From: Candidatus Omnitrophota bacterium
Lineage (GTDB): Bacteria; Omnitrophota; Gorgyraeia; Zapsychrales; Zapsychraceae
Direction: 5' to 3'
Assembly: GCA_003528115.1 (NCBI GenBank)
Contig: DOGZ01000023.1
Location: 24,231 to 88,230 of the forward strand
Length of the DNA: 64,000 bases
Shown: positions 3 through 39,207 of the stretch, in pieces
How positions within the stretch are numbered: position 1 is the first letter of the stretch
Layout of the letters: each line of letters opens with the position of its first letter
Made by a program: the position numbers and the translations under genes
Notes under the pieces: model-generated
The model's database searches: none
The model's input: the letters and a program-made list of their open reading frames with translations, nothing else
What the model was told of the DNA's origin: nothing

Positions 3-3000
3 GTCACCAGCTTTGGGATTGAGGCCAAGGATAAGGCGATTATGGAGTTCCAACCGGCTAATAAATCTTACCGGCAGACGGCCTTAAAAGGTTTCCGGAC
101 TTTCATTAAGGTAAAATCCGGGGCAGACACGATTTATTGGGAACCCTTCCAAAACTATTTGTTGGGGACGGACTTCAAGAAGAAACAGAAACTTTATATC
201 ACGGCCCATGATCTCACGCTGGAGGAGACGAATTTTGATTTGGGCCTGATCATCCGGGTGAATTATTTTACACTGCCTGAGGAACCCTATGCGGCGCTGG
301 TCCGGCGCGTTTCGATCCGCAATATCGGCAAGACGTCTTGTCAGGTCGAGCTGATCGACGGTCTTCCCATGATCGTTCCGTACGGTTTAAAGGATTGGGC
401 CATTAAGAATATGGCGCGCACCGTTGAGGCCTGGGTGAAGGTCCGCAATCTCAAGAAGAACGCGCCGTATTATCAACTTAATGTGGAGGTTTCGGATAAG
501 CCGGAGGTGACCCATATCAAGGAAGGGAATTTTTATTTTAGTTTTGATCCTGACGCGGACAGCCAGAAGCCCTTGCCGTCGATTGTCGAGGCCTCCTGTG
601 TCTTTGGACAGGCCGTTGATTTTATTGCCCCGGTGAATTTTCTGGCGGAGACCTTTCAAATGCCGGATCAACAGCAGACGAGCAACCGCACGCCGTCGGC
701 GATGAGTTATATTCAATACACGCTGGCGCCGCATCAAGAAAAAGAAATTGTGTCGTTTCTGGGATACGCCCGCAGCGAAGACCAGCTCAACCGCATTGTG
801 AAACAAGTTTCCAAGGCCAAGTTTATCCATCGGAAGGCGGACCGTAACAGGGAGATCATTGAGGAAATCAAGAATTTTGCCTTGACCAAGAGCGCCTCGG
901 ATGAGTTCAATTTATACGCCGGCCACACGTTTCTTGATAATATTTTAAGGGGCGGACTGCCCATTACGGTGAAGACCCAAACCGGACACGTGACGTTCAA
1001 TGTTTACAGCCGCAAGCACGGAGACTTGGAACGGGATTACAATTATTTTGTCGTCGCTCCGACATTTTACTCCCAGGGAAACGGCAACTACCGGGATGTG
1101 AATCAGAACCGCCGTAATGATGTCTGGTTCAACAGGGATGTCAGGGACAGCCATTTGATTAATTTCTTGAGTTTGATTCAGACCGACGGGTACAATCCGC
1201 TTATTGTCAAAGGGGCCACGTTCCGCGTCGAGGATCCGAAAAAGCTGGACGCTATTCTGAAAAGTTGTCTGAAGGGCGAGGACCTGTTACGGGTCAAAGA
1301 ATTTCTGCAAAAGGAATTTCTTCCCGGGGCTCTGCTGGAATATGTCATCCAGAATCAAATCGAATTGAAGATCCCCCTGGAACAGATGTTCAGTCAGATT
1401 TTGGGCATTTGCGTCAAGCAGGAGTCCGCGGATCATGGCGAGGGATTTTGGACCGACCATTGGACCTACAATTTGGATCTCATCGAGAGTTATTTGGCGC
1501 TGTTCCCGGAAGATTTAGGGCGGCTTTTGATGGAGACAAAAGCCTTCAGTTTTTATCAGAATTCCCATTATGTCCTGCCGCGCGCGCAGCGGTATATCCT
1601 GACGGACAAAGGGGTGCGGCAGTATCATTCTGTTGCCGAACCTGACGACGAAGAGAAGGAAAAGAGGAAAAACAAGGATAAGGTTGTGCGGATTAAGAAT
1701 GGCCAAGGGGCGGTTTATTACACGTATTTGACGGGCAAACTCCTCTGCCTGATTGCCAATAAAGCCGCCAGCTTTGATCCCAGCGGAGTCGGGATTGAGA
1801 TGGAGGCGGACAAACCCAATTGGTATGATGCCATAAACGGACTTCCCGGGCTTTTAGGTTCTTCTGTTTCCGAGATGGTCGAATTAAAGAGACTCAGTGT
1901 GTTTGTATCGGAGGCTTTAAAACAAATGGGCGCGCAAGACAGTTTGAAGATCCCCGTCTTTGAAGAATTGGCCTCTTTTGTCACAGGTCTCACGCATGTC
2001 TTGTCGACGGAAGCGAACCCGTTGGTCTATTGGAACAAGGCCAATGATCTCAAGGAGCATTACCGTCATAGGGTGCGCGGCGGCATTGACGGCCGGGAGA
2101 CCACGATGCGTGGCGCTGAAATCCAGATTTTTTTGAACCTTGTTATACAAAGATCACAAAAGGCGATGGAGGCGGCAAGAAATAATGACGGATTTTTGGC
2201 CACCTATTTTTATCATGAAGTCACGGAGCATGTCGTCCTGGATAAAGGCGTCGAAGGGACGAAGCATTTTGTCAGACCGGTCAAATTCAAACGTCATGCC
2301 TTGCCCCTGTTTTTGGAAGGCTATGTCCATGCTTTGAGGACTGTCGGCAATGAAGATCAGGCGCGCGCGTTGTACAAACAAGTGCGTCAGAGCCCCCTGT
2401 TTGACCGCGCGTTAAAGATGTACAAGGTCAACGCGGATTTATCCAAAGAGTCTGAGGAAATTGGACGGACACGGATTTTCCCGGCCGGCTGGTTAGAAAA
2501 TGAGTCGATCTGGCTTCATATGGAATACAAATTTATCCTGGAGCTTTTGCGTAATGGCCTTTATGAGGAGTTTTATGAAAATTTCCGTAACGTGCTTATT
2601 CCTTTCCTGAAGGCCGAGACGTATGGCCGCAGTATCCTGGAGAATTCCTCTTTTCTGGCCAGCAGTGCCCATGAAGACGCGTCCATTCACGGCCAGGGAT
2701 TTGTCGCCCGTCTTTCAGGGAGTACGGCGGAGTTTTTGCATTTATGGATTTTGATGAACGTCGGCCGCAGGCCGTTTTCTTTGAATGCCGAAGGAAAGCT
2801 GATCCTGCAATTGGCGCCGGTCCTGGCCGGATGGTTGTTCACGGACAAGAAATCCAGGATTTCTTTCTTTGATCGGAATCAAAAATGGCAGGCCATTGAA
2901 TTGCCGGAAAATGTTTATGCCTTTAATCTGCTCGGTTCCACCCTTGTTGTTTATCATAATCCGACGCGGGCTGATACCTTCGGCAAGAATAAAGTCAGCA

Positions 3001-3131
3001 TCCACAAGATTCGGCTGATTTATCCAAAAGTCAAACAGCCCGTGACGATCCTCTCCCCGATCATTCCTGAAGTCCATGCGAAGGACATCCGTGATAGAAA
3101 ACTCGAACGCATAGATGTCTATTTTGAATAA
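3..3131 (+). CDS. Large (at least 1029 aa) conserved protein, putative (alpha/alpha)6-barrel glycoside hydrolase/phosphorylase (GH94/GH15-like). The 5' end probably runs off the window.
   Basis: The reading frame is open from the window edge; the first ATG is at 42. A 'NGNYRDVNQNRRNDVWF' segment resembles the G-x-RD-x-Q-D catalytic segment of GH94-type phosphorylases. Family assignment is from memory and not searched. Confidence 0.4.
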   Translation, partial: VTSFGIEAKDKAIMEFQPANKSYRQTALKGFRTFIKVKSGADTIYWEPFQNYLLGTDFKKKQKLYITAHDLTLEETNFDLGLIIRVNYFTLPEEPYAALVRRVSIRNIGKTSCQVELIDGLPMIVPYGLKDWAIKNMARTVEAWVKVRNLKKNAPYYQLNVEVSDKPEVTHIKEGNFYFSFDPDADSQKPLPSIVEASCVFGQAVDFIAPVNFLAETFQMPDQQQTSNRTPSAMSYIQYTLAPHQEKEIVSFLGYARSEDQLNRIVKQVSKAKFIHRKADRNREIIEEIKNFALTKSASDEFNLYAGHTFLDNILRGGLPITVKTQTGHVTFNVYSRKHGDLERDYNYFVVAPTFYSQGNGNYRDVNQNRRNDVWFNRDVRDSHLINFLSLIQTDGYNPLIVKGATFRVEDPKKLDAILKSCLKGEDLLRVKEFLQKEFLPGALLEYVIQNQIELKIPLEQMFSQILGICVKQESADHGEGFWTDHWTYNLDLIESYLALFPEDLGRLLMETKAFSFYQNSHYVLPRAQRYILTDKGVRQYHSVAEPDDEEKEKRKNKDKVVRIKNGQGAVYYTYLTGKLLCLIANKAASFDPSGVGIEMEADKPNWYDAINGLPGLLGSSVSEMVELKRLSVFVSEALKQMGAQDSLKIPVFEELASFVTGLTHVLSTEANPLVYWNKANDLKEHYRHRVRGGIDGRETTMRGAEIQIFLNLVIQRSQKAMEAARNNDGFLATYFYHEVTEHVVLDKGVEGTKHFVRPVKFKRHALPLFLEGYVHALRTVGNEDQARALYKQVRQSPLFDRALKMYKVNADLSKESEEIGRTRIFPAGWLENESIWLHMEYKFILELLRNGLYEEFYENFRNVLIPFLKAETYGRSILENSSFLASSAHEDASIHGQGFVARLSGSTAEFLHLWILMNVGRRPFSLNAEGKLILQLAPVLAGWLFTDKKSRISFFDRNQKWQAIELPENVYAFNLLGSTLVVYHNPTRADTFGKNKVSIHKIRLIYPKVKQPVTILSPIIPEVHAKDIRDRKLERIDVYFE

Positions 3132-3684
3132 GAGATTCCGGGGCCATGGCTGGGGCGGGCGGGCCGTAAGCGTGGGCTTGTTGATCGCGTCTTACGTTGG
3201 TTCCAACGGCCTATTTTCAGCGGCGGCGGACACGCCACCGACCCTGGAGGCCGCGGCGTACTGTAAGAAATCTTATGAAGAAGAGGGGACGTGTCCGGAA
3301 AGGATATGTTCCCTCGCGTGCGCGTCCGGCATTCAGAAACCGGGTTGCGTCTTGAGCTGTGAACTTAAACCCTGTGTGGAAATCAGCGTTGAAGACTGCC
3401 CGTTGGATTCCTGTATTATTCTGACGGGGTGTCGGAATGCCGCCAAGGTCTGTTATTATCCATCCAACTCAGAAATCCCTGTCTGTGGTGATTTGGCTTA
3501 TTTTGGTGACGACAGGGAGTGTTGTAAAGGATTGGTGAAACGCTGCGGCATTGAATTCCTCGATGGTCGTTGTGAAATGTCCGGTGAGAAATCCATTTAC
3601 AGTGTCCCCATCTGCATCCCCTGCGGCAACGGTATCTGCAATCAATTTGAAAATAAATGCAACTGCCCCGAAGATTGCGGGTAA
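3115..3684 (+). CDS. Small secreted cysteine-rich protein (about 22 Cys in about 150 mature residues) with an N-terminal signal peptide
   Basis: The N-terminus 'RAVSVGLLIASYVGSNGLFSAAADT' looks like a signal peptide with an AxA-type cleavage site. Dense C-x(n)-C spacing continues to the C-terminus 'CNQFENKCNCPEDCG'. No family recognised. Confidence 0.5.
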   Translation: MSILNKRFRGHGWGGRAVSVGLLIASYVGSNGLFSAAADTPPTLEAAAYCKKSYEEEGTCPERICSLACASGIQKPGCVLSCELKPCVEISVEDCPLDSCIILTGCRNAAKVCYYPSNSEIPVCGDLAYFGDDRECCKGLVKRCGIEFLDGRCEMSGEKSIYSVPICIPCGNGICNQFENKCNCPEDCG

Positions 3685-3715
3685 CGCCCAATTTTAATCA
3701 TGTCCATTTACAGAA

Positions 3716-4861
3716 TTAAAGCATTTGGACGATTTCTTCCGCCGCGCGATGGCTGGCGCCGGCGGCGCCGAGGGACTCTTTGACCTTGGTAAGCTCTGAT
3801 TTGATGGCGCTGATTTTAATTTCATCGGTGAAAATGCCCTTCAGTTCAGAGGCGATGTTCTGTCCCGTGGCTTGAAACTGGACACACTCCGGCACGATCC
3901 TTTGGCCGGCCACGATGTTCACCAGACCGATGTCGCGGATTTTGACAAAACATTTGGCCAGGACCCATGTCAGGAAGGAGGTCTTGTAAAGGACGACCAT
4001 GGGTTTACGCAGAAGGGCGGTTTCTAAGGTGGCTGTTCCGGAGGTGACCATGCACAGATCGCACGCGTTGATCCCGTCGTAAGTCTGGTTTTCAAGAATG
4101 GGAACGCGCAGAGAGGATGGCGCCAGGGTTGATTCGATGAGGACCTTGTCGATGGACGGGGCTTTGAGAATCAGAAACTGGATCATGGGGAATTCATCTC
4201 TGAGCAGGCGCGCGGCCTCCAGCATCAGGGGGAGGTGCCGTTCGACTTCCTTTGCTCTGGATCCGGGCAGAAGACCGATGGTGAGTTTATACTCCTGAAG
4301 ACCCAATGAACTGAGGAGGTCATTTTTTTCGGTTTTGATTTCTACGCCGTCCACCAGAGGATGGCCGACAAACCGGACTTCCATCCCGAACTTGGCGTAA
4401 AAATCTTTTTCGAATTGAAAAAGAACGAGCATCTTATCAATGTATTTTTTAATCTGAAATACGCGGTTTTTTTTCCAGGCCCACACCTGCGGGCTGATGT
4501 AGTAGATGATCTTGACGCGGCGGTGGCGGCGTTTGATTTCGCGGGCCAGGCGCAGATTGAACCCCGGGTAATCCACAAGGATGACGGCGGCGGGCGCGGT
4601 GTTTTTGATTTTCTTGAGAATCAGATCAAAGGATTTCTTGATTTCTCTGTAATGTTTCAGGACTTCAACAAATCCGACGACGGCCAGGCGTGTTAAATCC
4701 TGATAAAGTTCAACCCCGCGTTCTTGCATCCGAGGGCCGCCCAAGCCGGAGAACGTAAAGCCCAGTTCAAGCTCCTGGATCGCCTTAACCAGATGGGCCG
4801 CGTGCATATCCCCGGAATCCTCACCGGCAACGATGATGATATGTTTGGAAGAAGAATTCAT
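3716..4861 (-). CDS. lpxB: Lipid-A-disaccharide synthase
   Basis: N-terminal 'IIIVAGEDSGDMHAAHLVKAI' GT19 signature, about 380 aa. Confidence 0.85.
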   Translation of the reverse strand: MNSSSKHIIIVAGEDSGDMHAAHLVKAIQELELGFTFSGLGGPRMQERGVELYQDLTRLAVVGFVEVLKHYREIKKSFDLILKKIKNTAPAAVILVDYPGFNLRLAREIKRRHRRVKIIYYISPQVWAWKKNRVFQIKKYIDKMLVLFQFEKDFYAKFGMEVRFVGHPLVDGVEIKTEKNDLLSSLGLQEYKLTIGLLPGSRAKEVERHLPLMLEAARLLRDEFPMIQFLILKAPSIDKVLIESTLAPSSLRVPILENQTYDGINACDLCMVTSGTATLETALLRKPMVVLYKTSFLTWVLAKCFVKIRDIGLVNIVAGQRIVPECVQFQATGQNIASELKGIFTDEIKISAIKSELTKVKESLGAAGASHRAAEEIVQML

Positions 4862-4877
4862 GACAGGAATACGAGCG

Positions 4878-5831
4878 TTATCGCCTACTTTCCGCCAGCG
4901 GGTTGTTTTCTAAATTTTTCCAAATAAGGCGGCTGATCTGTAAGGCCACTTCAAGGGCCGCCTTACCTTCCTGACCAGAAACAAGCGGGGTCTTATTTTC
5001 CCGGAGGCAGTCGATAAAGTGTTCTATTTCTTTTTTAAGCGGCTCCTCTTTTTCAATCGGGAGGCTGTGTTTGAGAATCTGGTTGTCGGACTTCTTGTAA
5101 ATAAAGGCTTCTTGTTTGACGTAGTCCAAGGAAATATAGGTGTCTTTTTGGAAGATGCGGATTTTGCGCATGACTTCATCCGACACACGGCTCGCTGTTA
5201 AATTACAGACGCAGCCGTTCTCAAACGTCAGCCGAACGCTGGCAATGTCCTCAAGCGGCGTCAGGACCGGGACCCCGATGGCTTGAACGTCTTTAAGAGG
5301 GCCTTGAAGGACGCCTAAAATAATGTCGATGTCATGGATCATTAAATCCATGACCACTCCAATGTCGAGCGAGCGGTTCGGAAACTGATTCAGGCGGTGG
5401 CATTCGATAAAGAGGGGTCGATGGGTGAAATGTTTGATGGATTGAAAGGCCGCGTTAAATCGTTCGACGTGGCCTACCTGGATTTTGACGGAGTGTTTTT
5501 GGGCGAGTTGGATCAGTTCTTCCGCCTGCGCCAGGGTTGTTGTCATAGGCTTCTCGATAAAGGTGTGGATGCGGTGTGCCAGGAAAAACTTGGCCACCGC
5601 GTGATGGGATTCGGTGGGAACACAGATGTTGACGGCATCGATCCGGCCGACAAGCGACGCGGGGTCTTGAACAAAAGGGATGTTGTAATGGCCGGCCAAT
5701 CTTTGGGTGCGTTCTTCTTTAATATCGCAGATACCGACAATCTCCACCTTGTCGCTTAATTCAGAGAGGACCTTGAGATGTTTGGACCCCAAATGGCCGA
5801 TGCCGACAATCGCTATTTTGACTTTGTTCAT
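4878..5831 (-). CDS. Gfo/Idh/MocA-family NAD(P)-dependent oxidoreductase (possible GnnA-like UDP-GlcNAc 3-dehydrogenase)
   Basis: N-terminal Rossmann 'KIAIVGIGHLGSKH'. About 317 aa, co-directional and adjacent to lpxB. Confidence 0.6.
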   Translation of the reverse strand: MNKVKIAIVGIGHLGSKHLKVLSELSDKVEIVGICDIKEERTQRLAGHYNIPFVQDPASLVGRIDAVNICVPTESHHAVAKFFLAHRIHTFIEKPMTTTLAQAEELIQLAQKHSVKIQVGHVERFNAAFQSIKHFTHRPLFIECHRLNQFPNRSLDIGVVMDLMIHDIDIILGVLQGPLKDVQAIGVPVLTPLEDIASVRLTFENGCVCNLTASRVSDEVMRKIRIFQKDTYISLDYVKQEAFIYKKSDNQILKHSLPIEKEEPLKKEIEHFIDCLRENKTPLVSGQEGKAALEVALQISRLIWKNLENNPLAESRR

Positions 5832-5924
5832 AGGGCAGAGTAAAGAAGATGAGGGATAGCTTAGGAGTATAAGAATCCTTACACTCAGGTATCATCATAA
5901 TTGGTGTGCAATATAACAAACGCC

Positions 5925-5953
5925 TCGACAAATGTCAATCGATATGCTAGAAT
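5925..5953 (+). promoter_or_regulatory. Putative sigma70 promoter for msbA: -35 TCGACA, 17-nt spacer, -10 TAGAAT
   Basis: Read directly from the sequence, about 60 nt upstream of the msbA ATG. Lies in the divergent intergenic region shared with the lpxB operon. Confidence 0.45.
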
Positions 5954-6011
5954 CCGCCTTCTTTTGAACACGTAAGCCCTCATGTCGTAACTTAAATGGG
6001 CCCAAATACTC

Positions 6012-7805
6012 ATGGAAAATTATTTAAAATTACTGCGGTTTTTAAGGGGGCACCGGAAACTGTTTTCCGTAGCTGTGGCCACGATGTTTGTCGCCAGCTT
6101 TTTCGAAGTGTTTCAGTTGTCGCTCCTGGTCCCGATGGTGGATGTTATTTTTACCCATAAAAAAATCGTCCTTCCCAACGCCCTGCCTCATTTTATTGAA
6201 AATTTGGTTAATCATCTCAACAGCATGGATCCGGCGCGCTTGTTCCCGCTGTTCATCGGGGGGTTCGTCGTTCTTCTTTTATTCAAGAATATTCTCATGT
6301 TCGGTTACCAGTATTTTATGGGGGACGTTTCGCAGAGAATCATGAGGGACATCCGCCTTCAACTGTATGAGAAAATACAGAGTTTATCCCTGGATTATTT
6401 CAGTGAAAAAAGGACCGGGGAACTGGTCTCCCGCATTACCCATGATGTCAATGTCGTTGAGAATGCTGTTTCTTATGGTGTGACAGATCTCTTCCGTCAG
6501 ACGTTTATTATTTTTATGTGGATCGGGACGGCCTTTACGATTGATTCCCATGCCGCGTTTATCATTTTCATCGTCCTGCCGCTTATCGTCTTTCCTATGA
6601 GTAAGATCGGGAAGCGCCTGCGCAAGATATCTAAAGGGACTCAGGAGAAGATGGCGGATATCAACACCCTTTTGCTTGAGACGATTTCCGGCGTAAAATT
6701 AGTCAAGGCTTTTTGCACCGAGGCTTACGAGACAAACCGCTTCAGGGGGCAAAACCACGATTATTATAAATTGAGGATGAAATCGATCAAGAGGCTTATC
6801 CTTATTTCTCCGATCACGGAAATCATCGGAGGGATCTGCGGGGTGGCGCTCATTTTATGGTTTGGCCGGAGGTTGATGGGCGGGGAGTTGTCGTTTGGGG
6901 TTTTTATATTGTTTTTCGCTTCTGTGATGTCCATCATCAGCCCGATCAAAAAGCTTGGCAATGTCAACGCCCTGACGCAGCAGGCGCTGGTGGCCAATGA
7001 GCGTATCTATGATATTTTGAACGCTGAACCAACGGTTAAAGAAAAAATCAATGCGATCTCCGTTCAAGAGATGAAGGCGCAGATTCGGTTTGAAGGCGTT
7101 CGTTTTCATTATGATGAAAAATCAGGGGATGTTTTAAAAGATATTAATTTTGAGGTCCGCAAAGGGGAACTGGTGGCTATCGTAGGTCCGACAGGGACGG
7201 GGAAGACTACGCTGGTCAATTTGATTCCGCGATTTTATGATCCGACCGAAGGCGCGGTGAAAATGGACGGTGTCAACTTGAAGGAAGTCGCGTTTTTATC
7301 CTTGCGTGATCAAATTGGTATTGTGACTCAGGAGACCATCTTATTTAATGATACCGTCCGGGCCAATATTGCCTACGGACATAGACATGCCACGCAATCG
7401 GAGATTGAAGAGGCGGCTCAAAAAGCTTTTGCCCACCCGTTTATTCAGAAGATGCCCAAGAGGTACGAGACCATTATCGGCGATCGCGGTTTTCGTTTGT
7501 CCGGGGGGGAAAAACAGCGCGTATCTATTGCCCGGGCTATTTTAAAAAATCCCCCGATCCTTATTTTAGATGAGGCGACGTCGCAGTTGGACTCGGAATC
7601 AGAAAAATATATTCAAGAGGCCTTGGATGAGCTGATGCGCGGACGGACCGTGGTCGCGATCGCCCACCGGTTATCGACGATTAAAAAGGCGGACAAAATA
7701 GTTGTTTTGGAAAGCGGGAACATCGTTGGCCTGGGGCGTCATGAAGCGCTGCTCGAAACATGTCCCCTTTATCAAAGGCTTTACAGAATGCAGTTTCAGG
7801 CGTAG
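6012..7805 (+). CDS. msbA: Lipid A/phospholipid export ABC transporter (fused permease and ATPase)
   Basis: Six-TM N-terminal half; Walker A 'GPTGTGKTT'; ABC signature 'LSGGEKQRVSIARA'; Walker B 'ILILDEAT'; 597 aa; next to lpxB. Confidence 0.75.
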   Translation: MENYLKLLRFLRGHRKLFSVAVATMFVASFFEVFQLSLLVPMVDVIFTHKKIVLPNALPHFIENLVNHLNSMDPARLFPLFIGGFVVLLLFKNILMFGYQYFMGDVSQRIMRDIRLQLYEKIQSLSLDYFSEKRTGELVSRITHDVNVVENAVSYGVTDLFRQTFIIFMWIGTAFTIDSHAAFIIFIVLPLIVFPMSKIGKRLRKISKGTQEKMADINTLLLETISGVKLVKAFCTEAYETNRFRGQNHDYYKLRMKSIKRLILISPITEIIGGICGVALILWFGRRLMGGELSFGVFILFFASVMSIISPIKKLGNVNALTQQALVANERIYDILNAEPTVKEKINAISVQEMKAQIRFEGVRFHYDEKSGDVLKDINFEVRKGELVAIVGPTGTGKTTLVNLIPRFYDPTEGAVKMDGVNLKEVAFLSLRDQIGIVTQETILFNDTVRANIAYGHRHATQSEIEEAAQKAFAHPFIQKMPKRYETIIGDRGFRLSGGEKQRVSIARAILKNPPILILDEATSQLDSESEKYIQEALDELMRGRTVVAIAHRLSTIKKADKIVVLESGNIVGLGRHEALLETCPLYQRLYRMQFQA

Positions 7806-7855
7806 CACGGTGTACCCACAGGCGCCGTTGTCCCCCATACCCGCTTAAATAAATA

Positions 7856-7884
7856 GTTGCAAAGAAAATAAATATTGAGTATAC
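7856..7884 (+). promoter_or_regulatory. Putative sigma70 promoter for the rpsB-tsf operon: -35 TTGCAA, 17-nt spacer, -10 TATACT
   Basis: Read directly from the sequence. Followed by a structured leader of about 160 nt. Confidence 0.45.
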
Positions 7885-7984
7885 TACGTCAACTTAAATC
7901 AGGATTAACAACAATATTATGCGGATTTTATTCTGGTTGAAGAATATCTATGAAGCATAATATTCACCAATGACGGACGGTGGT

Positions 7985-8008
7985 CGTCTGAGAAATAACT
8001 CTCAGACG
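7985..8008 (+). promoter_or_regulatory. Stable stem-loop in the rpsB 5' leader (CGTCTGAGA / TCTCAGACG). Candidate S2 autoregulatory leader element.
   Basis: A perfect 9-bp inverted repeat with a 6-nt loop, about 40 nt upstream of the rpsB start. rpsB leaders are autoregulated by S2 in many bacteria. Confidence 0.35.
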
Positions 8009-8047
8009 TTTGACCGAAAGTCATTGCGCGACACAAACGGAGGAAAC

Positions 8048-8848
8048 ATGGTTGAAGAATTAGTCAAAAAACTTCTCGAAGCCGGGGTCCATTTCGGGCA
8101 TCAAACAAGACGCTGGAATCCAAGAATGAAAAGATTCATTTTTGGTGAAAGAAGCGGCATTTATATCATTGACCTGGAGAAAACGGTCGAATGCTTGAAC
8201 GCGGCCAGAGATTTTATGCGTGATGTCACGGCCAAAGGAGGCAAGGTTCTTTTTGTCGGAACCAAGAAGCAGGCGCAAATTATTATTGAAGAGGAAGCCA
8301 TCAAGTCCGGGATGTTTTATGTGAAGAATCGCTGGCTGGGCGGTTTATTAACCAATTTTCAAACGGTTAAAAAATCCATTGAAAGATTAAAAGCTATTGA
8401 AAAAATGGCGCAAGATGGGGTTTTGGAACACTTGAAAAAGAAAGAGGTTTCCCGTTTAACCAAAGAGAAAGAAAAACTTTTGCTTAATCTGGGAGGAATT
8501 CGGGATATGCAGAAACTTCCGGATGTGTTGTACCTCATTGATCCGAAGAAAGAAGATATCGCGGTTAAAGAGGCGAAGAAGTTGAATATCAAAATTGTAG
8601 GGATGGTCGATACAAATTGTGATCCGGACAATATTGATTATCCCATTCCCGGGAATGACGACGCCTTAAAATCCATCCGTTTCATCACATCTCTTGTCGC
8701 GGAAAGTGTCAGAGAAGGCAGAAAAGAGTATATGACGAGTGAAGTGGCGACCAAAAAAGATGGACAAACAGAACCTCAGACGCCCTTGAAGGAGAGCGCC
8801 GTTCCCCTCGAGTCTTCAACGGTTTCACCCAATCCTTCTGAAAACTAA
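8048..8848 (+). CDS. rpsB: 30S ribosomal protein S2
   Basis: '[33 protein letters not shown]' is an S2 signature. Start moved to the ATG at 8048, which is preceded by GGAGGA. The upstream in-frame extension from 7970 was rejected. Confidence 0.9.
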
Positions 8849-8971
8849 GTGTTGAAAAGAATATTCGTTGAGGTTATTGTTGCATCCGGAGTGGCCCCGG
8901 ATCCGCGTTGATGACAACACAATGGAAATTTATAGACGCCCGCTATTTTTGCGAAAGTCACTAGAAAGGGT

Positions 8972-9508
8972 ATGTTAATGGAAATTTCAGTTGATTCGAT
9001 AAAAGAGTTGCGTGAGATGACCTCGTGCGGTGTGATCGAGTGTAAAAAAGCCCTGCAGGAGGCCAATGGCGACATGGTGAAAGCTAAAGAGATTCTCCAG
9101 CGCAGAGGGCTGGAAATCGCGGCGAAAAAAGGGAGCCGCCTGGCCAAAGAGGGACGGATTGAGGCGTACATTCATCCCGGATCTAAAATCGGAGTCTTGG
9201 TGGAGGTCAATTGTGAAACGGACTTCGTCGCCAAGAATGAAGATTTTTGCAAATTCACCAAAGATTTAGCCATGCAGATCGCGGCGGCCCATCCGAAGTA
9301 TATCAAAAGAGAAGACGTCAGTGAGGATGTTTTGAAAGAACAGGACGATCGGGAGACGTTTATCAAGGAAAAATGTCTCGTGGAACAGCCGTTTGTGAAA
9401 GATCCCAAAAAGACGATTCAGGATTGTATCAATGCCTTGATCGCCAGTATTGGGGAGAATATTTACATTAGCCGTTTTGCCAGATACAAGGTCAACGAAA
9501 TTGAATAA
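8972..9508 (+). CDS. tsf: Elongation factor Ts (short form)
   Basis: N-terminal UBA-like '[37 protein letters not shown]'. The start could be the second Met at 8978. Confidence 0.85.
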
Positions 9509-11409: not shown

Positions 11410-11886
11410 ATGAAAATCAGTGATTTCCTTTCTGCCAAGGCGGTTTCGGCTAACCTGATGAGCACGACCAAGGCGGACGTTATATCCGAACTGGTTGATC
11501 TGCTTGTCAACGCCGGTTCGATTGATAAAAAACACAAGAAAAAAACTTTGGAAATATTAATGGCCAGGGAAGCCTTGGGTTCAACCGCGATCGGCCAAGG
11601 GATCGCGATTCCGCATGGGAAATGCGATTGTGTTCAAAAATTAGTCGGTTGTCTGGGAATTAGTAAGAGCGGGATAAATTTCGATTCTTTAGACGGCGAG
11701 CCTGCCTATATTTTCTTCTTGCTCGTTGCCCCCATTGATTCCGCTGGGCCTCACCTCAAGGCGTTAGCCAGAATTTCTCGTCTATTAAAAGATAAATATA
11801 TCCGAGAAAGTTTCAAGGCCGTAACCGATGAAAAGGGTATCCTGAAGATTATTCAACAAGAAGATGGGCGACTATCTAAACCATAA
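11410..11886 (+). CDS. ptsN: PTS EIIA(Ntr)-type nitrogen regulatory protein
   Basis: 'MAREALGSTAIGQGIAIPHGK' active-site region with the phosphorylatable His; 158 aa. Confidence 0.75.
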   Translation: MKISDFLSAKAVSANLMSTTKADVISELVDLLVNAGSIDKKHKKKTLEILMAREALGSTAIGQGIAIPHGKCDCVQKLVGCLGISKSGINFDSLDGEPAYIFFLLVAPIDSAGPHLKALARISRLLKDKYIRESFKAVTDEKGILKIIQQEDGRLSKP

Positions 11887-11888
11887 GC

Positions 11889-13130
11889 ATGCCGAAAAAT
11901 CCTATTAAGTGGTTATACCCAGGCATGAGGGTTAAGCGGTGGCTGTTCACGTCTCTGCTGGGGGTCGTTATTGTCGGTGTCGGGGCGGTATTGACGGCGG
12001 AACCATATTCATTTGTCAGTGCCTTTGGCGTTGTGTGGATATTATGCGGTTTGATTTTGATTGTGATGGGCGTGGGGAAAATGATAGTCTCGCTGCTTAC
12101 CTTGTTTCTCCCTAAAGGCGAACGAGAATTAGTTAATATCCTCTATCAGCGTCGATATTTAGAGCGTGGCCCCAAAATTGTTGCCATCGGCGGCGGTCAC
12201 GGTCTTTCACATCTTATATTTGGATTAAAAGAATACACCTCCAATATCACGGCTATTGTGACTGTGGCCGACAGCGGTGGATCCTCTGGCCGTTTGCGGG
12301 AAGAGTTTAACATTGTCGCGCCGGGGGATATTCGCAACTGTTTGGTGGCTTTGGCGGATGCCCCGGCCTTGATGGGGGAACTTTTCCAATTCCGTTTTTC
12401 CAAGGACTCAGAATTAAAAGGGCATAATTTTGGAAATTTGTTTTTAACCGCCATGGTTCAATTGACCAACGGCGATTTTGAACGCGCAGTCAAAGAGACA
12501 AGCAAGGTCCTGGCCATACGCGGCAAAGTGGTCCCATCGACGGTGAGTAATGTTCATCTTGTGGCAGAATATTGGGATGGGACAAAAACAGAAGGGGAGG
12601 CCGCGATCCCCAATTCCAACTCAAGGATTAAACGTCTTTCGTTGACCCCTCAAGAGGTTTATCCGACGAAGGACGCCCTGGCGGCCATTGATGAGGCGGA
12701 CATTATTATTTTAGGCCCGGGAAGTTTATACACCAGTGTGATCCCGAATTTGATTATTCAGGGGATGGATGAGGCAATCGCCAGAGCCTATGCTTTTAAG
12801 ATTTATGTGTGTAATGTCATGACCCAGCATGGAGAAACGGATGGCTATTCCGCGAGTGATCATGTCAAGGCCATCATTGAACATTCTCAAGCGGGAGTCA
12901 TGGACGCGTGTTTGATTAATAACGCCGAAGCCCCAACCGATGCCCTCGGGCGGTATAAAAATGAGGCGTCTTTTCCTGTCAAGGCGGATACGGAGCGCAT
13001 TCGGGCTATGGGGTACAAAGTCGTGGCCACCGATTTGCTGGGGGTCACGGATTATGTCCGTCATGACTCTAAAAAACTCATCAATGAGCTCATTAAGTTG
13101 ATTGAAACGCATCGGGTGATTAAGAGATGA
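11889..13130 (+). CDS. YvcK/CofD-family (UPF0052, gluconeogenesis factor-like) protein with an about 95-aa N-terminal two-helix membrane anchor
   Basis: 'PKIVAIGGGHGLSHL...IVTVADSGGSSGRLREEFNIVAPGDIRNCLVALAD' is a YvcK/CofD signature. The first about 95 aa are strongly hydrophobic. Confidence 0.7.
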   Translation: MPKNPIKWLYPGMRVKRWLFTSLLGVVIVGVGAVLTAEPYSFVSAFGVVWILCGLILIVMGVGKMIVSLLTLFLPKGERELVNILYQRRYLERGPKIVAIGGGHGLSHLIFGLKEYTSNITAIVTVADSGGSSGRLREEFNIVAPGDIRNCLVALADAPALMGELFQFRFSKDSELKGHNFGNLFLTAMVQLTNGDFERAVKETSKVLAIRGKVVPSTVSNVHLVAEYWDGTKTEGEAAIPNSNSRIKRLSLTPQEVYPTKDALAAIDEADIIILGPGSLYTSVIPNLIIQGMDEAIARAYAFKIYVCNVMTQHGETDGYSASDHVKAIIEHSQAGVMDACLINNAEAPTDALGRYKNEASFPVKADTERIRAMGYKVVATDLLGVTDYVRHDSKKLINELIKLIETHRVIKR

Positions 13131-13185
13131 GTCCCGGGAGAGGGAGAGATCGACGGAGTGACGTGAGAGAGTGGAAGAATCTTCT

Positions 13186-13455
13186 ATGCCAGTGATTGAA
13201 AAAGAAATTGTCATTAAAAATAGCCAGGGACTGCACGCCCGGCCCGCGGCTCTGTTTATTCAGATTGCCACGAAATATAATTCCAAGGTGACGATCCAAA
13301 AGGGCCATGAAAAGGTGGACGGTAAATCAATTATGGGGATATTAACGTTGGGCGCCCAGAGGAACAGCAAAGTGATTGTGACGGCCGATGGCGAAGACGC
13401 GCAGGCGGTTTTGTCTGAATTAGAACAATTATTAACCAGTGAACAAAACTCATGA
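13186..13455 (+). CDS. ptsH: Phosphocarrier protein HPr (or NPr)
   Basis: '[13 protein letters not shown]' His15 region and '[12 protein letters not shown]' Ser46 region. Start taken at MPVIEK. Confidence 0.85.
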
Positions 13456-15218
13456 ATGAAATCGTTTTAAAGGGAATTCCGGCGGCCCCCGGGGTAGCGG
13501 TGGGTGCGGCTTTTATTTTAGACAAACAGGATTTTATTGTCGCCCCGCGCGCCATAATGGAAAAAGAGGTCCCGATCGAAATCGCGCGGTTTGAAGAGGC
13601 CCTCATCAAGACAAGAGAAGAAATCGCCGAGATTCAGAAAAAAATCAGCTCAGAGATGTCCGGGAAACACGCGCAGATTTTCGACGCCCATCTCTTGGTC
13701 CTGGAAGACAGGGCCCTTGTCGAAGAAGTCATCAAGCGCGTTAAATCGGACAAGCTATGCGCGGAATATATTTTTTCTGAAGTCTTAAAGAAATACATCA
13801 AGATTTTCTCCACCATCGAGGATGAATATTTAAGAGAACGGGTCAGCGATGTTGGTGACGTCGGCCGGCGGGTCTTAAAAAATCTTATGGATGAAAATAA
13901 GCTTCATGAGTTTGAGAATATAACCGAGGAGTTGATTATCATCAGTCATGATTTGTCGCCTTCGGATACGGCCAGTATGTACAATAAAAACATTATCGCC
14001 TTCGCGACGGACATCGGCGGCAGGACGTCGCATACGGCGATCATGGCGAAATCTCTCGGCGTCCCGGCTATCGTCGGGCTGAAAGACGCGACCTTGCGCA
14101 TTCATAACCAGGATAATATTATCGTTGACGGCCGCAAGGGCCTGCTGATTATTCATCCCACCGAGGAGACAAGAAGATTTTACCGCAAGGCCCAGACGCG
14201 TATTATTGAATTTCGCGATCAGTTCCAGGAAATTAAGGATGTGCCGGCCAGGACTCTTGATGGTAAAGAGATTACGCTTCTGGCGAATTTGGAATTGCCC
14301 GAAGAAATTCCCGCCATTTTGAAACATGGGGCCAGCGGGATCGGATTATATCGGACAGAATATTTTTACATGAATCGTGTCGATTTGCCTTCGGAAGATG
14401 AGCAGTTCGAGGCGTATAAATATGTCGCGCAAGCCATCGCCCCCAAGCCCGTGACGATCCGTAGTCTTGATTTGGGCGGAGATAAATTCACTTCGAGCCT
14501 GCAAATCCCCCGGGATATGTATCCTTGCCTGGGCTGGCGCGCCATCCGTTTTTGTCTGGCTCGTCCTGATATTTTTAAAACGCAATTAAGGGCGATCTTA
14601 AGAGCTTCGGCGTATGGAATCATTCGTTTGATGTATCCCATGATCTCCGGGCCCGGCGAATTTCGTCAGGCCAATATTATTCTGGAAGAGGTCAAGAGTA
14701 ATTTGAGAGAAGAGAAAATCCCTTTTGACGAAAAGATGCAGGTCGGGGCGATGATTGAAGTCCCTTCAGCCGCGATGACAGCGGATTTATTAGCTAAAGA
14801 GGCGGATTTTTTTAGTATTGGCACCAATGACCTCATCCAATACACGCTGGCGGTCGATCGCGTGAATGAGCAGACGGCTAGTCTGTATGAGCCGGGACAT
14901 CCGGCGGTTCTGCGTCTGATCAAAAACACCATTGACGCGGCGCATCAGGCGAACATCGGGGTGGGCCTCTGCGGAGAGATGTCCAGCGAACCGTGCTTGG
15001 CGCTCATATTATTGGGATTAAATCTTGGGGAATTCAGTATGTCGTCGATCAATATTCTCCAGATAAAAAAAATGATACTCAGCGTGAGCTTGAAAGACGC
15101 CCAGAGATTAGCGGAGGATGTTCTTAAATTATCGACGGGCCAGGAGGTTGAGGAATTAAGCCGGTCCAGACTCAAAGAATTGGCTCCGGATGTCCTGAGC
15201 ATGGATAGGGGAGAATAG
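13452..15218 (+). CDS. ptsI: Phosphoenolpyruvate-protein phosphotransferase (PTS Enzyme I)
   Basis: '[21 protein letters not shown]' phospho-His domain, PEP-utilising C-terminal domain, 588 aa. Confidence 0.85.
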
Positions 15219-28566: not shown

Positions 28567-29829
28567 ATGCGGTTCATTTTTGACATCATTTTTGTGGTCT
28601 ATGCCTTAGTGTATTTTCCTTATGTGATGCTTCAGAGGAAATGGCATAAGGATTTTCCCCAGCGTCTCGGCTGCTGGCCCGCGGCCTTGAGGAGCGCGTT
28701 TAAACAGAAAGACAATATCTGGGTCCACGCGGTCAGTGTCGGCGAGGTCGAGGCGTCTTTACCTTTGATTAAAAGGATTAAGGAATCCTTCCCGGCGTAC
28801 GGAATGATTTGCTCCACCGTGACACCAACAGGCTATCGTCTCGCCAGGGAGAGATTGCAAGATCAGGGACTTGTTATTTATGCCCCGCTGGATTTTAGCT
28901 GGATGACGCGCAAACTCGTCCATCTCATCCGGCCTAAAATGTACGTTGTGGTGGAAACAGAAATTTGGCCGAATATGTTCTTGGCGCTCCAAAGCCGGGG
29001 CGTGCCGATCGTCCTGGTGAACGGCCGTATTTCGGACAAGGCCTTCAGAAACTATCAAAAGATTTCTTTTCTCCTGAGAAGGATCCTGCGTGGTGTGAGC
29101 CATTTTTGCATGCAATCTTCCCTCGATGCGCGGCGGATCCTAACGCTCGGTGCCCCGCAAGAAAGGGTCAGCGTCGTGGGCCATTTGAAGTTTGATAACC
29201 TGCCGCCGCCTGCCGCGGATTTACCCAAAATAAATTTTGGAAAAGACGACAGGCTTCTCATCGCCGGCAGCACGCATCCGGGAGAGGAGGAAATCCTTCT
29301 TAAAATTTATAAAAAGCTGGTTGCCGAGTTCAAAACGATACGATTAGTCCTCGCCCCCCGCCATGTGGAGCGGACGCAGGATGTTGTCAGGCTGGTGGAA
29401 GACCTGGGATTTAAGGCGGTTAAGTTTTCGCGTGCCGCCGATGTCCGATTGACGGCCGATTCCGTCGTTGTTGTCGACACCATAGGACAGTTGCGGACTT
29501 TGTACAATTGGGCGGAGGTTGTTTTTGTGGGAAAATCGCTCACCGTCCCCGGCGGACAGAACATCATCGAACCGGCCTTTTACGGCAAGCCGGTTTTTGT
29601 CGGACCCCACACGCGGAATTTTCGTGACGTGGTGGCGTTGTTTTTACAAGAACAGGCGCTTGTTCAAGTCCGGGATGCCGATGAATTATTCTTTGCTTTA
29701 AAGGAATTTCTTCGGGATCCGAACCCGAGGACACAAATGGGGCTTCGGGCGCAAGCCGTCGTTCAAAAATATCAGGGTGCGACCGCCCGCACGATTAAAA
29801 TCCTTTCAACCTTTCTTGGCCGGGAATAA
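28567..29829 (+). CDS. waaA: 3-deoxy-D-manno-octulosonic acid (Kdo) transferase
   Basis: N-terminal TM anchor plus 'WVHAVSVGEVEASLPLIKRIK' GT30 signature; 420 aa. Confidence 0.85.
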   Translation: MRFIFDIIFVVYALVYFPYVMLQRKWHKDFPQRLGCWPAALRSAFKQKDNIWVHAVSVGEVEASLPLIKRIKESFPAYGMICSTVTPTGYRLARERLQDQGLVIYAPLDFSWMTRKLVHLIRPKMYVVVETEIWPNMFLALQSRGVPIVLVNGRISDKAFRNYQKISFLLRRILRGVSHFCMQSSLDARRILTLGAPQERVSVVGHLKFDNLPPPAADLPKINFGKDDRLLIAGSTHPGEEEILLKIYKKLVAEFKTIRLVLAPRHVERTQDVVRLVEDLGFKAVKFSRAADVRLTADSVVVVDTIGQLRTLYNWAEVVFVGKSLTVPGGQNIIEPAFYGKPVFVGPHTRNFRDVVALFLQEQALVQVRDADELFFALKEFLRDPNPRTQMGLRAQAVVQKYQGATARTIKILSTFLGRE

Positions 29830-29839
29830 GAGGAAGAAC

Positions 29840-30928
29840 ATGAGCGTGAGGCATTTCCTGTATTTGGTGGCGACGGATCAGAAAAAGGGATGGGGAATTC
29901 AGGTCTTGAAATCCGTCTTAGGCCTGTTGTCCTGCCTTTATGGTTTCGTGGTTCTGATCATTGGGTGGGCTTACCGCGGGGGCTTGTTTAGAACCATCCG
30001 TCTGGCCAGACCAGTTGTGAGTGTCGGCAACATGACTTTGGGAGGCGTGGGCAAAACGCCCCTTGTGGAATTGATCGCCGCGGCCTTAAAAGAGAAGAAC
30101 ATCAAACCGGTTGTTCTCATCCGCGGGTATATGAGTCCAATATGTTCGCGGAAGTCAGGAGTTGGGCGCAGGTCCTTAAGCGATGAAGCCCGGATGCTGG
30201 TCGCTTCTTTGGGGGATGTGCCGGTCTTGGTCGGGGCGGACAGAGTGAAGAATGCCGTCAATTTTTTGAAAGGGCACACCGCGGATATTTTCTTGTTGGA
30301 TGACGGGTTTCAGCACCGGCGGATTTTCAGGCAGTTGGATATTGTGGCGATTGACGCGACCGATCCTTGGGGGAACGGATGTTTGATCCCTCGTGGTATT
30401 TTGAGAGAACCTTTCAGGGCCTTGCGCCGGGCGCACATGGTGGTGTTAACCAAGACGGACTTAGGCGGGTCCAACGTCCCTCAGATCAAGGCGCGGTTAC
30501 AAACGTTAGGCCTCACCCTCCCGGTCATCGAGACCATTCATCAGCCCTGCGCCCTTGTGGATGTGCGTTTGAAGACAACGACGTCGATGTCTTTCCTTAA
30601 AGGAAAAACAATTTGTTCTTTTTGCAGTATTGGACATCCCAAGACGTTTGAAATGACGCTGGTGAATTTGGGGGCGCAGTTAGCAAAAAGTTTTTCTTTT
30701 ATTGACCATCATGTGTATGAAGAAGACGATATCGCGCGGATCGCCCGGTATTGTCAGGCCGACGGGATCGATACGGTGGTGACCACACAGAAAGACGCGG
30801 TCAAACTGGAACAGTGGTTACGGTTCTTCCCGGCGTCTTTTAAAGTTTTATCCTTGCAGATCAAGATATCGATTGTCAAAGGGAAGGAAGAATTCTTTGA
30901 AAGAATTGATCATCTACTACAGCGCTAG
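29840..30928 (+). CDS. lpxK: Tetraacyldisaccharide 4'-kinase
   Basis: 'VSVGNMTLGGVGKTPLVELIA' P-loop. Start moved to the ATG at 29840; the ORF track's 29777 start overlaps waaA. Confidence 0.85.
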   Translation: MSVRHFLYLVATDQKKGWGIQVLKSVLGLLSCLYGFVVLIIGWAYRGGLFRTIRLARPVVSVGNMTLGGVGKTPLVELIAAALKEKNIKPVVLIRGYMSPICSRKSGVGRRSLSDEARMLVASLGDVPVLVGADRVKNAVNFLKGHTADIFLLDDGFQHRRIFRQLDIVAIDATDPWGNGCLIPRGILREPFRALRRAHMVVLTKTDLGGSNVPQIKARLQTLGLTLPVIETIHQPCALVDVRLKTTTSMSFLKGKTICSFCSIGHPKTFEMTLVNLGAQLAKSFSFIDHHVYEEDDIARIARYCQADGIDTVVTTQKDAVKLEQWLRFFPASFKVLSLQIKISIVKGKEEFFERIDHLLQR

Positions 30929-32861
30929 ACTTTTTGGTCTGGTCATCCAATCCTTGCCGTTGCCCGTGGCCCTCTGGACGGGAAAGTTTCTCGGCATGAT
31001 GGTCTATTACGTCGACGCGCGGCATAAGGCCTTGGCCTATGCCAATCTGAAAATGGCCTTTAGCCGTTTAAGGTCATCGGATGAGTTAAAGCGAATCACC
31101 AAGATTCTGTTTCAGAATTATGGACGGAATTTGATTGAATTGTTCCGCATGCCGCTGCTGACTCCGTCTAAGTTCGCGGAATTGGTCAAGATTGAAGGAA
31201 AGGAAAACATCTCTGAGGCGTTGAAGCAAGGCAAGGGACTGATTTTGATTGCCATGCATTTTGGAAGCTGGGAGATGGCCAGCGTTTCGTGCGGTTTACT
31301 GGATCATCCGTACAAGGTCATTGTCAAACCGCAAGTGAAATATTCTAAACTCGATGAGCTGCTCAATTCTTACCGGGCCTGCGGGGGGTCGGTCATTCTT
31401 TCCAAAGGATTGGGGACGCGGGACTTTGTGAAAAGTTTAAAGAACAATGAAGTCATCGGCATGGTGGTGGATCAAGGGGGCAAGGATGGTGTCCTGGTGC
31501 CGTTTTTCAGCCGGCAGGCATCGATGTCCTCAGGGGCCATCCGTATGGGATTGAAGTGGGGCGTGCCGTTATGCTTCTCTATTATTATCCGGGAAAACGG
31601 CGCGCACCACCGGATGATCATTAATAAACCTCTTGAGCTGGAAAATACCGGAGACATGGAAAAAGATGTTGTGACGAACTTAACAAAGATCGCCGGGATC
31701 ATGGAACGGTATATCACCGAGTATCCGTCGGAATACATGTGGTTCTATAAAATCTGGAAGTATTCGAAAGAGGCGCATATCACCCTTCTCAGTGACGGAA
31801 AGACTGGTCATCTGCGGCAATCCGAGACGGTGGCGCGGATGATGCAGAAGGCTTTGGCGGAAAGAAGGATCGCCTCAACGGTTCAAACCGTTCAGGTGAA
31901 TTTCAAGAATAAGTTTGCCGCGAGAATTTTTTCTCTCATGAGTCTTCTTTCGCGTCCTTTCTTGCATCAGGGCCGGCTGCAATGTCTGAAATGGTTTCTG
32001 ACCGAGAAGTCTTTAAAAGATGTCATGGCCGCGAAGGCGGATTTTATTGTCTCCTGCGGCTCCTCCATCGCCGGGGTGAATCATCTTTTGTCTCAGGATC
32101 ATAATGCCAAAAGCCTGGTGGTCCTTAAGCCGGGTCTCTTGGGATATGACCGGTTTGATTTGGTCCTATTGCCCCAGCATGATGTCTCGCGTCAAGACAG
32201 GAGCAGGAAACGCGTCGCTGTCACGGTCGCGGCGCCGAATTTGGTTAATGAAGAGTATCTGAAAGAACAATCCGTTTTGCTTTTGAACCGGTTTTCGCAT
32301 CTGAAGAGCCATACAAGAATGAAGATAGGCCTTTTTATCGGCGGCAATTCGAAAAACGTTTATTTGAGCGAGCCTCAGATAAGGGTATTGATTCACCAGA
32401 TCAAGCAGATCGCTCAAGAAATGAACGCGGATATCCTGGTGACGACGTCCCGCAGGACCCCGGGGCATCTTGAGCAACTGCTTCACGCGGAATTGAAGAA
32501 ATTTCCCCGATGTCCTTTGCTGATATTGGCTAACAAGGATAATATCCCGGAGGCTGTCGGCGGGATTCTGGGGTTGTCGGATATCGTCGTGGTGTCGGGG
32601 GACAGCATCTCCATGATCTCTGAGGCCGCGGCTTCAGGGAAAGACACCATTGTTTTTTCTCCGGAAAGCCGCGGAGGTTTCTGGAAAGGGACGGACAAGC
32701 ATAAAGTGTTTATTGAAAAACTTTATACCCAGGGATTTATTTTATCCGCCGAGGCGGGAAGTGTCGCGCAAACCATCAATGACGTTTTCAAGAACAAGAT
32801 CCATACAAAGAAAATCGAAGACCAGCAGATTATTCTCAACGCGGTGCGGGAAGCTATTTAA
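30873..32861 (+). CDS. Two-domain protein: N-terminal LpxL/HtrB-family lipid A late acyltransferase fused to a C-terminal ELM1/COG3660-like GT-B-fold domain
   Basis: The N-half has 'LIAMHFGSWEMA' (HX4E/D acyltransferase motif) and a LABLAT-like layout. The C-half has 'ILVTTSRRTP' and 'VVVSGDSISMISEAAASGKDTIVF', resembling the Mito_fiss_Elm1/COG3660 family. Assignment from memory. Confidence 0.55.
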   Translation: MSKGRKNSLKELIIYYSARLFGLVIQSLPLPVALWTGKFLGMMVYYVDARHKALAYANLKMAFSRLRSSDELKRITKILFQNYGRNLIELFRMPLLTPSKFAELVKIEGKENISEALKQGKGLILIAMHFGSWEMASVSCGLLDHPYKVIVKPQVKYSKLDELLNSYRACGGSVILSKGLGTRDFVKSLKNNEVIGMVVDQGGKDGVLVPFFSRQASMSSGAIRMGLKWGVPLCFSIIIRENGAHHRMIINKPLELENTGDMEKDVVTNLTKIAGIMERYITEYPSEYMWFYKIWKYSKEAHITLLSDGKTGHLRQSETVARMMQKALAERRIASTVQTVQVNFKNKFAARIFSLMSLLSRPFLHQGRLQCLKWFLTEKSLKDVMAAKADFIVSCGSSIAGVNHLLSQDHNAKSLVVLKPGLLGYDRFDLVLLPQHDVSRQDRSRKRVAVTVAAPNLVNEEYLKEQSVLLLNRFSHLKSHTRMKIGLFIGGNSKNVYLSEPQIRVLIHQIKQIAQEMNADILVTTSRRTPGHLEQLLHAELKKFPRCPLLILANKDNIPEAVGGILGLSDIVVVSGDSISMISEAAASGKDTIVFSPESRGGFWKGTDKHKVFIEKLYTQGFILSAEAGSVAQTINDVFKNKIHTKKIEDQQIILNAVREAI

Positions 32862-32999
32862 CTCTTTAGCAGGCGCTTGGAAAGAGCGGCAACGCCAGGG
32901 AATCAATTCTTGCCCGCGGGCAAGAATTCAGACAGCCGCCGGCTGGCAACGCGGCATGAACCTGACTGGAATAAAATTTCTTAAAGCGGAAGCGTTTCT

Positions 33000-37208: not shown

Positions 37209-37456
37209 CCCCTTTCACTTCCTCAGCAAAGGCCGGTAAATATTCCATTGACGATACCGTTTTACAAATGCGGCATATGACCCGGTCTCTCAGTCTAGAG
37301 AATTTTGTTTACAATGAGGACGATTGCAAGGCGATGACCGTGCTTTTGGATTGTCTGCGGCCGCAGGCGGATGCTTATTTTCTATTGACAAATGGAGACG
37401 CTGTGGTAAGTTGTGTATGTAAATAAAGTGTACTAAAGTTATTTCAAAGATAACCT

Positions 37457-39119: not shown

Positions 39120-39207
39120 TGACGCCGGTGGGTCGTGCGGATGAGAAATCTGATTTTGAGAGGGTTTTAGAAAGGTTTAATCAGATATTCGCGGACAAGA
39201 AATTTAA

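Follow-up and report, generated by a model that had tools for sequence, protein, structure and literature searches.

A conserved cysteine-rich protein with a predicted export signal, and the uncurated family it belongs to, beside lpxB in Omnitrophota

The window, that is, the whole 64,000-nucleotide stretch of Omnitrophota DNA analysed here (contig DOGZ01000023.1), carries near its 5′ end a short gene for a cysteine-rich protein, placed between a large enzyme gene and the convergent gene lpxB. The features of this locus are as follows.

42..3131, + strand: upstream neighbour, assigned by similarity as a GH161-family glycoside phosphorylase gene; 5′-truncated by the window; match to PDB 9qqk and 9h8v
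3115..3684, + strand: gene of the Cys-rich, putatively exported protein; ORF of 189 aa with ATG start and stop codon at 3682-3684
3115..3228, + strand: predicted Sec signal peptide, aa 1-38, with the putative cleavage site after A-A-A38 (heuristic)
3244..3474, + strand: N-terminal family-specific domain, predicted to be disulfide-rich; aa 44-120, 11 Cys, AlphaFold2 pLDDT 91-97
3475..3681, + strand: C-terminal module of ~65 aa; aa 121-189, 11 Cys, where conservation is highest
3613..3678, + strand: 22-aa mini-motif CxxCGxGxCxxxENxCNCPxDC; aa 167-188, source of a marginal DUF2180 match
3716..4861, - strand: lpxB (lipid-A-disaccharide synthase), convergent downstream neighbour; PF02684
4878..5831, - strand: Gfo/Idh/MocA oxidoreductase gene, co-oriented with lpxB; PF01408 and PF22725; found in 33 loci
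6012..7805, + strand: msbA-like ABC exporter gene, first of the conserved msbA-rpsB-tsf-pyrH-frr string; PF00664 and PF00005; found in 38 loci

The first-pass annotation of this DNA had described the 189-aa ORF at 3115-3684 (+) as a small secreted protein with about 22 cysteines, amounting to about 15% of its mature part, and with a start overlapping the end of the upstream enzyme gene. The ORF was confirmed with its ATG start; its first 17 nt (3115-3131) also form the end of the upstream ORF. The count is exactly 22 cysteines, a share of 11.6% for the full-length protein and of 14.6% for the mature part predicted to span D39-G189, and the numbers of residues between successive cysteines are 9, 4, 3, 8, 3, 4, 7, 4, 5, 6, 10, 11, 0, 6, 8, 13, 2, 4, 6, 1 and 3. 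Among the 55 long ORFs of the window, the mean cysteine content is 1.26% and the runner-up reaches 3.4%; the binomial P for the Cys-rich protein is ~7e-15. Its pI is 4.52. A promoter and terminator scan of positions 2700-4000 returned a number of sites not above that in shuffled sequence.

The N-terminus of the protein fits a Sec/SPase I signal, from which export and the cleavage site are predicted. Residues K6, R7, R9 and R16 precede the hydrophobic stretch A17-F34 (best 10-aa Kyte-Doolittle mean 2.21), behind which a small-x-small motif lies in the sequence S-A-A-A, followed by D39. A comparable hydrophobic N-terminus was detected heuristically in 114 of the 127 family members, and 17 of the 127, the Polyangiales copies among them, have a lipobox-like motif. 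Since the organism possesses the LPS genes lpxB, msbA and kdtA, an lpxL-like gene and GT9, the exported protein would reside in the periplasm or the outer envelope. Two candidate identities were rejected in the course of the analysis. A RiPP precursor does not agree with the absence of a maturase gene nearby, the length of 189 aa and the predicted Sec signal, and a haem or Fe-S protein does not agree with a mature part devoid of His, CxxCH and ferredoxin motifs and an n-region devoid of a twin-arginine (RR) pair.

To define the family, we searched for homologues and obtained 67, with lengths of 140-262 aa and identities of 41-58%. One of them is 100% identical; it is annotated as a 'hypothetical protein' and comes from a Candidatus Omnitrophica MAG (GCA_001804395.1, contig MHFX01000002.1; locus L054). 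In alignments of 35 and 67 sequences, 19-20 cysteine columns are invariant or nearly so. Because the 67 homologues retain these columns, the ORF is not an out-of-frame artefact, as the first-pass annotation had allowed; the gene is real and conserved, and represents a previously undescribed and uncurated family from uncultivated bacteria. We define this Omnitrophota two-domain Cys-rich family, with the window protein as its reference, by an N-terminal signal followed by ~145 aa with ~20 conserved Cys and the C-terminal signature CCxGLVKRCG...CxxCGxGxCxxFENxCNCPEDC, all of which the window protein possesses. When one genome per GTDB species was scanned, 53 loci emerged; almost all belong to Omnitrophota MAGs, a few to Polyangiales MAGs and one to a genome labelled Pseudomonadota. 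An exhaustive profile search, with sequences clustered at 50% identity, gave 473 clusters with E<=1e-3, of which 125 reached E<=1e-10 and 32 reached E<=1e-30, and no relative was found in viral contigs.

The earlier remark that the protein could not be placed in any family was borne out, in that Pfam, NCBIfam, PADLOC and PHROGs returned no match to the window protein at a threshold as permissive as E<=1. The models of chlamydial OmcA/OmcB, planctomycete YTV and the Myxococcus Cys-rich repeat did not match either, at E<=1 for the window protein or at E<=0.01 for the 67 members. A phage origin was rejected in view of the lack of PHROGs matches and of relatives in viral contigs. Across the 67 members the sole Pfam match at E<=0.01 was to DUF2180, an archaeal Cys-rich family, which recognised the terminal Cys motif of two members (27 bits vs a cut-off of 22) and left the window protein and the other 65 unmatched; DUF2180 is itself uncharacterised, so this match carries no functional information.

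Some relatives depart from the reference in form. The genome of locus L002 (HK-STAS-OMNI-4) encodes a 351-aa paralogue (L053 7869-8924), in which a signal-like N-terminus is followed by the C-terminal module only and then by a further ~250 aa that contain Cys and match no Pfam family. In the Polyangiales MAGs the family takes the form of lipoproteins with the lipobox LLSC (L050 846-7255; L051 233-1662), whose genes overlap by 4 nt with the end of a gene for a 1609-aa FG-GAP/DUF11 protein and are translationally coupled to it; in L050 the lipoprotein version is tandemly duplicated along with a fragment of the large FG-GAP/DUF11 gene.

Analysis of the domain tables revealed the full two-domain architecture in 136 of 216 sequences. 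The N-terminal domain, in which C50, C60, C65, C82, C87, C95, C100, C106 and C113 are conserved, is specific to the mostly Omnitrophota family, and the C-terminal module is a reusable extracellular building block with the consensus CGxLAYxGQDVECCxGLVKRCGxEFFDGxCDMxG..Y..PICIPCGNGICNQFENxCNCPEDC. BLAST comparison of the two domains with each other showed no internal duplication beyond the word 'CPxD'. The C-terminal module (profile positions ~110-179) occurs in 3-8 tandem copies in the proteins P0101, P0130 and P0194, and also singly within multidomain surface proteins, and the mini-motif (profile positions 157-178) occurs in 4-7 stand-alone copies in P0115, P0181 and P0202. Fusion partners of the whole domain or the module include SLH, Kre9_KNH Ig-like, CARDB, Gmad2, NosD beta-helix and Kazal domains; architectures of this kind are typical of the cell surface. 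The module has named carriers in Candidatus Altiarchaeia, an archaeon, and in Candidatus Paceibacterota, a bacterium.

The structure was predicted with AlphaFold2 from the 67-sequence alignment. The full-length model reached a pLDDT of 77.7, with residues 41-120 above 90, and the mature part alone reached 88.3 with a pTM of 0.76; the check suggested in the first-pass annotation, which named a low-confidence fold as a warning sign, thus returned a confident fold. The model has a single helix (aa 44-57), at the start of the N-terminal domain, followed by short beta-hairpins. The same annotation had seen a resemblance to knottin, EGF or defensin-like scaffolds. This likeness is unsupported, because no HMM of the knottin, EGF, Kazal or defensin families and no solved fold matched (the best hit of the family profile against PDB sequences had E 1.3) and because the model combines a helix with hairpins. 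No known family matches the Cys-rich protein, and no known fold does among those in the PDB.

Two ways in which so many cysteines might be used had to be weighed. The sequence patterns argue for disulfides. Of the 137 domains, 113 have an even Cys count and 85 have the modal number, 22; the odd counts mostly come from N-terminally trimmed alignments. Cysteines are also gained and lost in pairs: C69 and C78 are absent jointly in 21 of 27 loss cases, C106 and C144 in four of five, and an insertion in P0067 brings two extra Cys. Both signs sought in this sequence-pattern test, an even number and pairwise gain or loss, were thus found and indicate disulfides, so that the protein is probably held together by about 11 such bonds, while the joint loss of C106 and C144 suggests that these two form an inter-domain bond. 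The other way would be that the cysteines bind metal in Zn, Cu or Fe thiolate clusters, as in metallothionein, or serve as a sacrificial periplasmic thiol buffer in an anaerobe, and we consider it quite unlikely. The cysteine content of the mature part and the acidity of the domain would suit it, Omnitrophota are mostly anaerobes, two members marginally match the archaeal DUF2180, and four to six Cys of the 22-aa mini-motif could make a knuckle. However, cysteines are lost in pairs rather than in fours and their number is strongly even, the protein lacks His and its signal a twin-arginine pair, the apo fold is predicted with confidence (pLDDT 88.3), and extracellular proteins carry the module in tandem copies. 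As a separate observation, locus L054 encodes at 1-817, ~9 kb upstream of the Cys-rich gene and beside an AsmA-like gene, a 725-aa Thioredox_DsbH/Thioredoxin_7 protein.

We then turned to the gene upstream, which the first-pass annotation had read as encoding a 1029-aa GH94-like enzyme of (alpha/alpha)6 type, co-transcribed with the small gene. While the overlap between the two genes stood, the length did not: the gene is cut by the window edge, which leaves its first 71 codons outside, and the full gene in L054 (6715-10017) encodes 1100 aa. The family was also revised. The ORF matched PDB entries 9qqk ('GH161A') and 9h8v with E ~1e-199 over residues 1-936, had no Pfam model, and showed only a weak N-terminal match to the NCBIfam GH149 model; GH161 is related to GH94 and GH149. 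Full-length similarity places the protein in GH161, as a predicted glycoside phosphorylase. Its N-terminus is hydrophilic and without a signal peptide, and phosphorylases are normally cytoplasmic, which suggests that the enzyme stays in the cytoplasm while the small protein would be exported.

That the small protein might be an inhibitor, a binding module or a toxin partner of this enzyme was suggested by the 17-nt start/stop overlap in the window, and we found GH161 directly upstream, with an overlap or a gap of <200 nt, in eight loci. The wider survey told against such a partnership. GH161 lies upstream in just 12 of the 50 loci with a called ORF of the Cys-rich gene, and in several of these 12, genes for ExbB, ExbD or cyclophilin intervene. 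In a neighbour-joining tree of lpxB and msbA, loci of GH161 type are interleaved with those of the Bat type described below, on long branches. Neither a conserved pairing nor a common (predicted) compartment was thus found. The Cys-rich protein is not a dedicated GH161 partner; the proposal is largely refuted and we regard it as highly improbable.

The downstream side of the locus is far more constant. In 41 of the 53 loci the Cys-rich gene converges on lpxB and the Gfo/Idh/MocA gene, with msbA-rpsB-tsf beyond. Upstream, it is the last gene of a Bat (aerotolerance) operon in 35 of the 50 loci, where the order is DUF58, DUF4381, BatA, BatB, BatC, BatD, BatE and sometimes DUF4288, and where the Cys-rich gene often follows with a gap of 0-20 nt or an overlap of 4-8 nt. 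The identity of BatD was established by PF13584 and by homology to Bacteroides BatD. Conversely, when Omnitrophota Bat operons were sampled via BatD, the Cys-rich gene was present in two of seven and missing from five, and in two loci (L058 and L062) batE directly abuts lpxB. These results imply a backbone made up of the Bat operon and the convergent lpxB after it, with a junction that the Cys-rich gene, old and widespread as it is, occupies in some loci but not in others. In 12 loci, that of the window among them, no Bat operon precedes the gene, and no bat gene was found anywhere in the 64 kb.

According to one proposal, the Bat system acts in the periplasm and reducing agents can rescue it, its function being still elusive (PMC3557215). 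The Cys-rich protein could accordingly be imagined as an accessory subunit, ligand or substrate of the Bat envelope complex (MoxR-DUF58-BatA/B VWA-BatC-BatD-BatE), for example a periplasmic client bound by the VWA and TPR proteins, or a thiol-rich redox partner. Its position at the co-directional end of the operon, behind batE or behind batE plus DUF4288, and the tight spacing agree with this, as does the proposed site and chemistry of Bat action. On the other side stand the five of seven sampled operons that lack the gene, the 12 loci that lack the operon, and the other contexts in which the Polyangiales relatives and the module of CPR bacteria and archaea are found, so that we judge a Bat-specific role unlikely. 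The conserved position near the Bat operon and lpxB could nevertheless signal a more specific role than that of a general envelope component. A still more far-reaching combination, in which the protein would be at once the founding member of an undescribed disulfide-rich fold, whose C-terminal module builds extracellular proteins in Omnitrophota, CPR bacteria and Altiarchaeia, and, in Omnitrophota, a periplasmic thiol-rich client or redox partner of the Bat complex, appears rather improbable.

Several details of this region were recorded alongside. The synteny block of Omnitrophota comprises MoxR-DUF58-BatA-E, convergent lpxB and the Gfo/Idh/MocA gene, and msbA-rpsB-tsf-pyrH-frr (window 3716-9508; L001-L049 and L057-L063). 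Inserts at the batE/lpxB junction include, besides the Cys-rich gene, Pro_CA_2+DUF4914, a transglutaminase-like gene and small hypotheticals. In seven loci (L002, L003, L005, L006, L009, L013 and L020) a DUF4288 gene for ~140 aa lies between batE and the Cys-rich gene (e.g., L013 7510-7938) and overlaps the start of the latter in the longest-ORF calls, by 4-8 nt in five loci. In one Omnitrophota Bat operon, an FMN_red (flavin reductase) gene (L061 3361-3936) sits between batC and batD, possibly a hint of a redox link for Bat.

Taken together, we consider it reasonably probable that the Cys-rich protein is an exported, disulfide-knotted, acidic structural or ligand-binding envelope protein of diderm, LPS-bearing Omnitrophota, and a structural or binding role, generic as this description is, is the most likely one. 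The small protein would be exported by Sec and its signal peptide cut near the A38/D39 bond; in the periplasm or on the cell surface, some 11 intramolecular disulfides would lock a compact, acidic two-domain fold (pI ~4.5), giving a rigid, redox- and protease-resistant component of the envelope. In the C-terminal half, strongly conserved residues other than Cys (Y129, R143, D150, M155, F178, E179 and N183) suggest a specific though putative ligand, and may form its binding surface. The gene itself occupies a variable junction before lpxB, where in most loci a Bat operon ends.

A secreted antimicrobial or toxin-like peptide of the defensin, knottin or bacteriocin type, directed against prey or hosts, would also be small, secreted (as predicted here) and Cys-rich, and Omnitrophota are suspected predators or symbionts (bioRxiv 10.1101/2023.11.21.568195). 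However, net charge is negative in all 137 family domains, from -20 to -1 with a median of -9, which is opposite to the net positive mature charge of a cationic antimicrobial peptide; the family is thus not defensin-like. Moreover, there is no match in PADLOC, PHROGs or Pfam, the gene is single-copy, keeps its place in the synteny and has no neighbour that resembles an immunity gene, and none of its relatives occurs in viral contigs. Such an activity is very improbable.

The family was also compared with known systems. The chlamydial proteins OmcA and OmcB (Chlam_OMP3 and Chlam_OMP6) are small and large exported Cys-rich envelope proteins of a diderm lineage, in which disulfides confer rigidity on the envelope. 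They have no sequence match to the window protein at E<=1, and the Omnitrophota members lack a lipobox; furthermore, the even number and pairwise covariation of the cysteines suggest intramolecular rather than intermolecular bonds. EGF, granulin, knottin, Kazal and LDL-A modules share with the family, as modelled here, the general design of extracellular, tandem-capable beta-hairpin modules of 20-65 aa with 2-6 disulfides. The Myxococcus Cys-rich repeat (TIGR02232/DUF4215) is likewise a bacterial extracellular repeat, of CG[DN]G...E.C..D.. flavour, whereas neither the window protein nor its tandem-array relatives matched it in NCBIfam or Pfam. This repeat has been cited as weakly similar to Cys-rich extracellular proteins that were already noted in CPR genomes (e.g., Peribacteria) of the same aquifer (PMC4736985). 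The CPR proteins resemble the window protein in having a signal peptide (a predicted one in the window protein), a very high Cys content and a presumed disulfide-stabilised place on the surface of similar groundwater organisms, and the presence of the C-terminal module in Candidatus Paceibacterota and Candidatus Altiarchaeia proteins adds a link. They differ in being large (~1,655 aa, ~7% Cys) and in being described by composition only (PMC4736985), whereas the window protein is a 150-aa stand-alone protein of two domains with 14.6% Cys and a family-specific N-terminal domain, and the two share no curated domain model.

Secreted disulfide-rich envelope modules in uncultivated lineages are thus already known; what is new is the family and its modules, which are uncurated, and a predicted fold without a match in the PDB. 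If the present reading is true, it adds this family and fold, together with a short disulfide module from which surface proteins of uncultivated bacteria and archaea are repeatedly built. Envelope proteins now labelled 'hypothetical' in the genomes of Omnitrophota, CPR and DPANN-like organisms could then be annotated more easily; the protein might also serve as a compact, stable scaffold. The study corrects a tempting guilt-by-association inference, that of a GH161 partner, and describes the Bat operon, lpxB and msbA-rpsB-tsf as a conserved Omnitrophota block whose junction gathers accessory envelope genes. The Cys-rich family alone neither opens nor settles a major question.

The remainder of the window offered further observations. 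Its strand bias is extreme, as 53 of the 55 non-overlapping ORFs of >=150 aa lie on the + strand, and lpxB and the Gfo/Idh/MocA gene are the sole genes among them on the - strand. An LPS-core gene cluster with unusual fusions was noted at 28567-40937:

28567-29829: KdtA
30873-32861: lipid A acyltransferase fused to an ELM1-like domain
33000-35099: GT4+GT9 heptosyltransferase fusion
39906-40937: second GT9 gene

Closer to the Cys-rich gene, at 11410-15218, a CofD-like gene is flanked by the PTS components EIIA, HPr and enzyme I.
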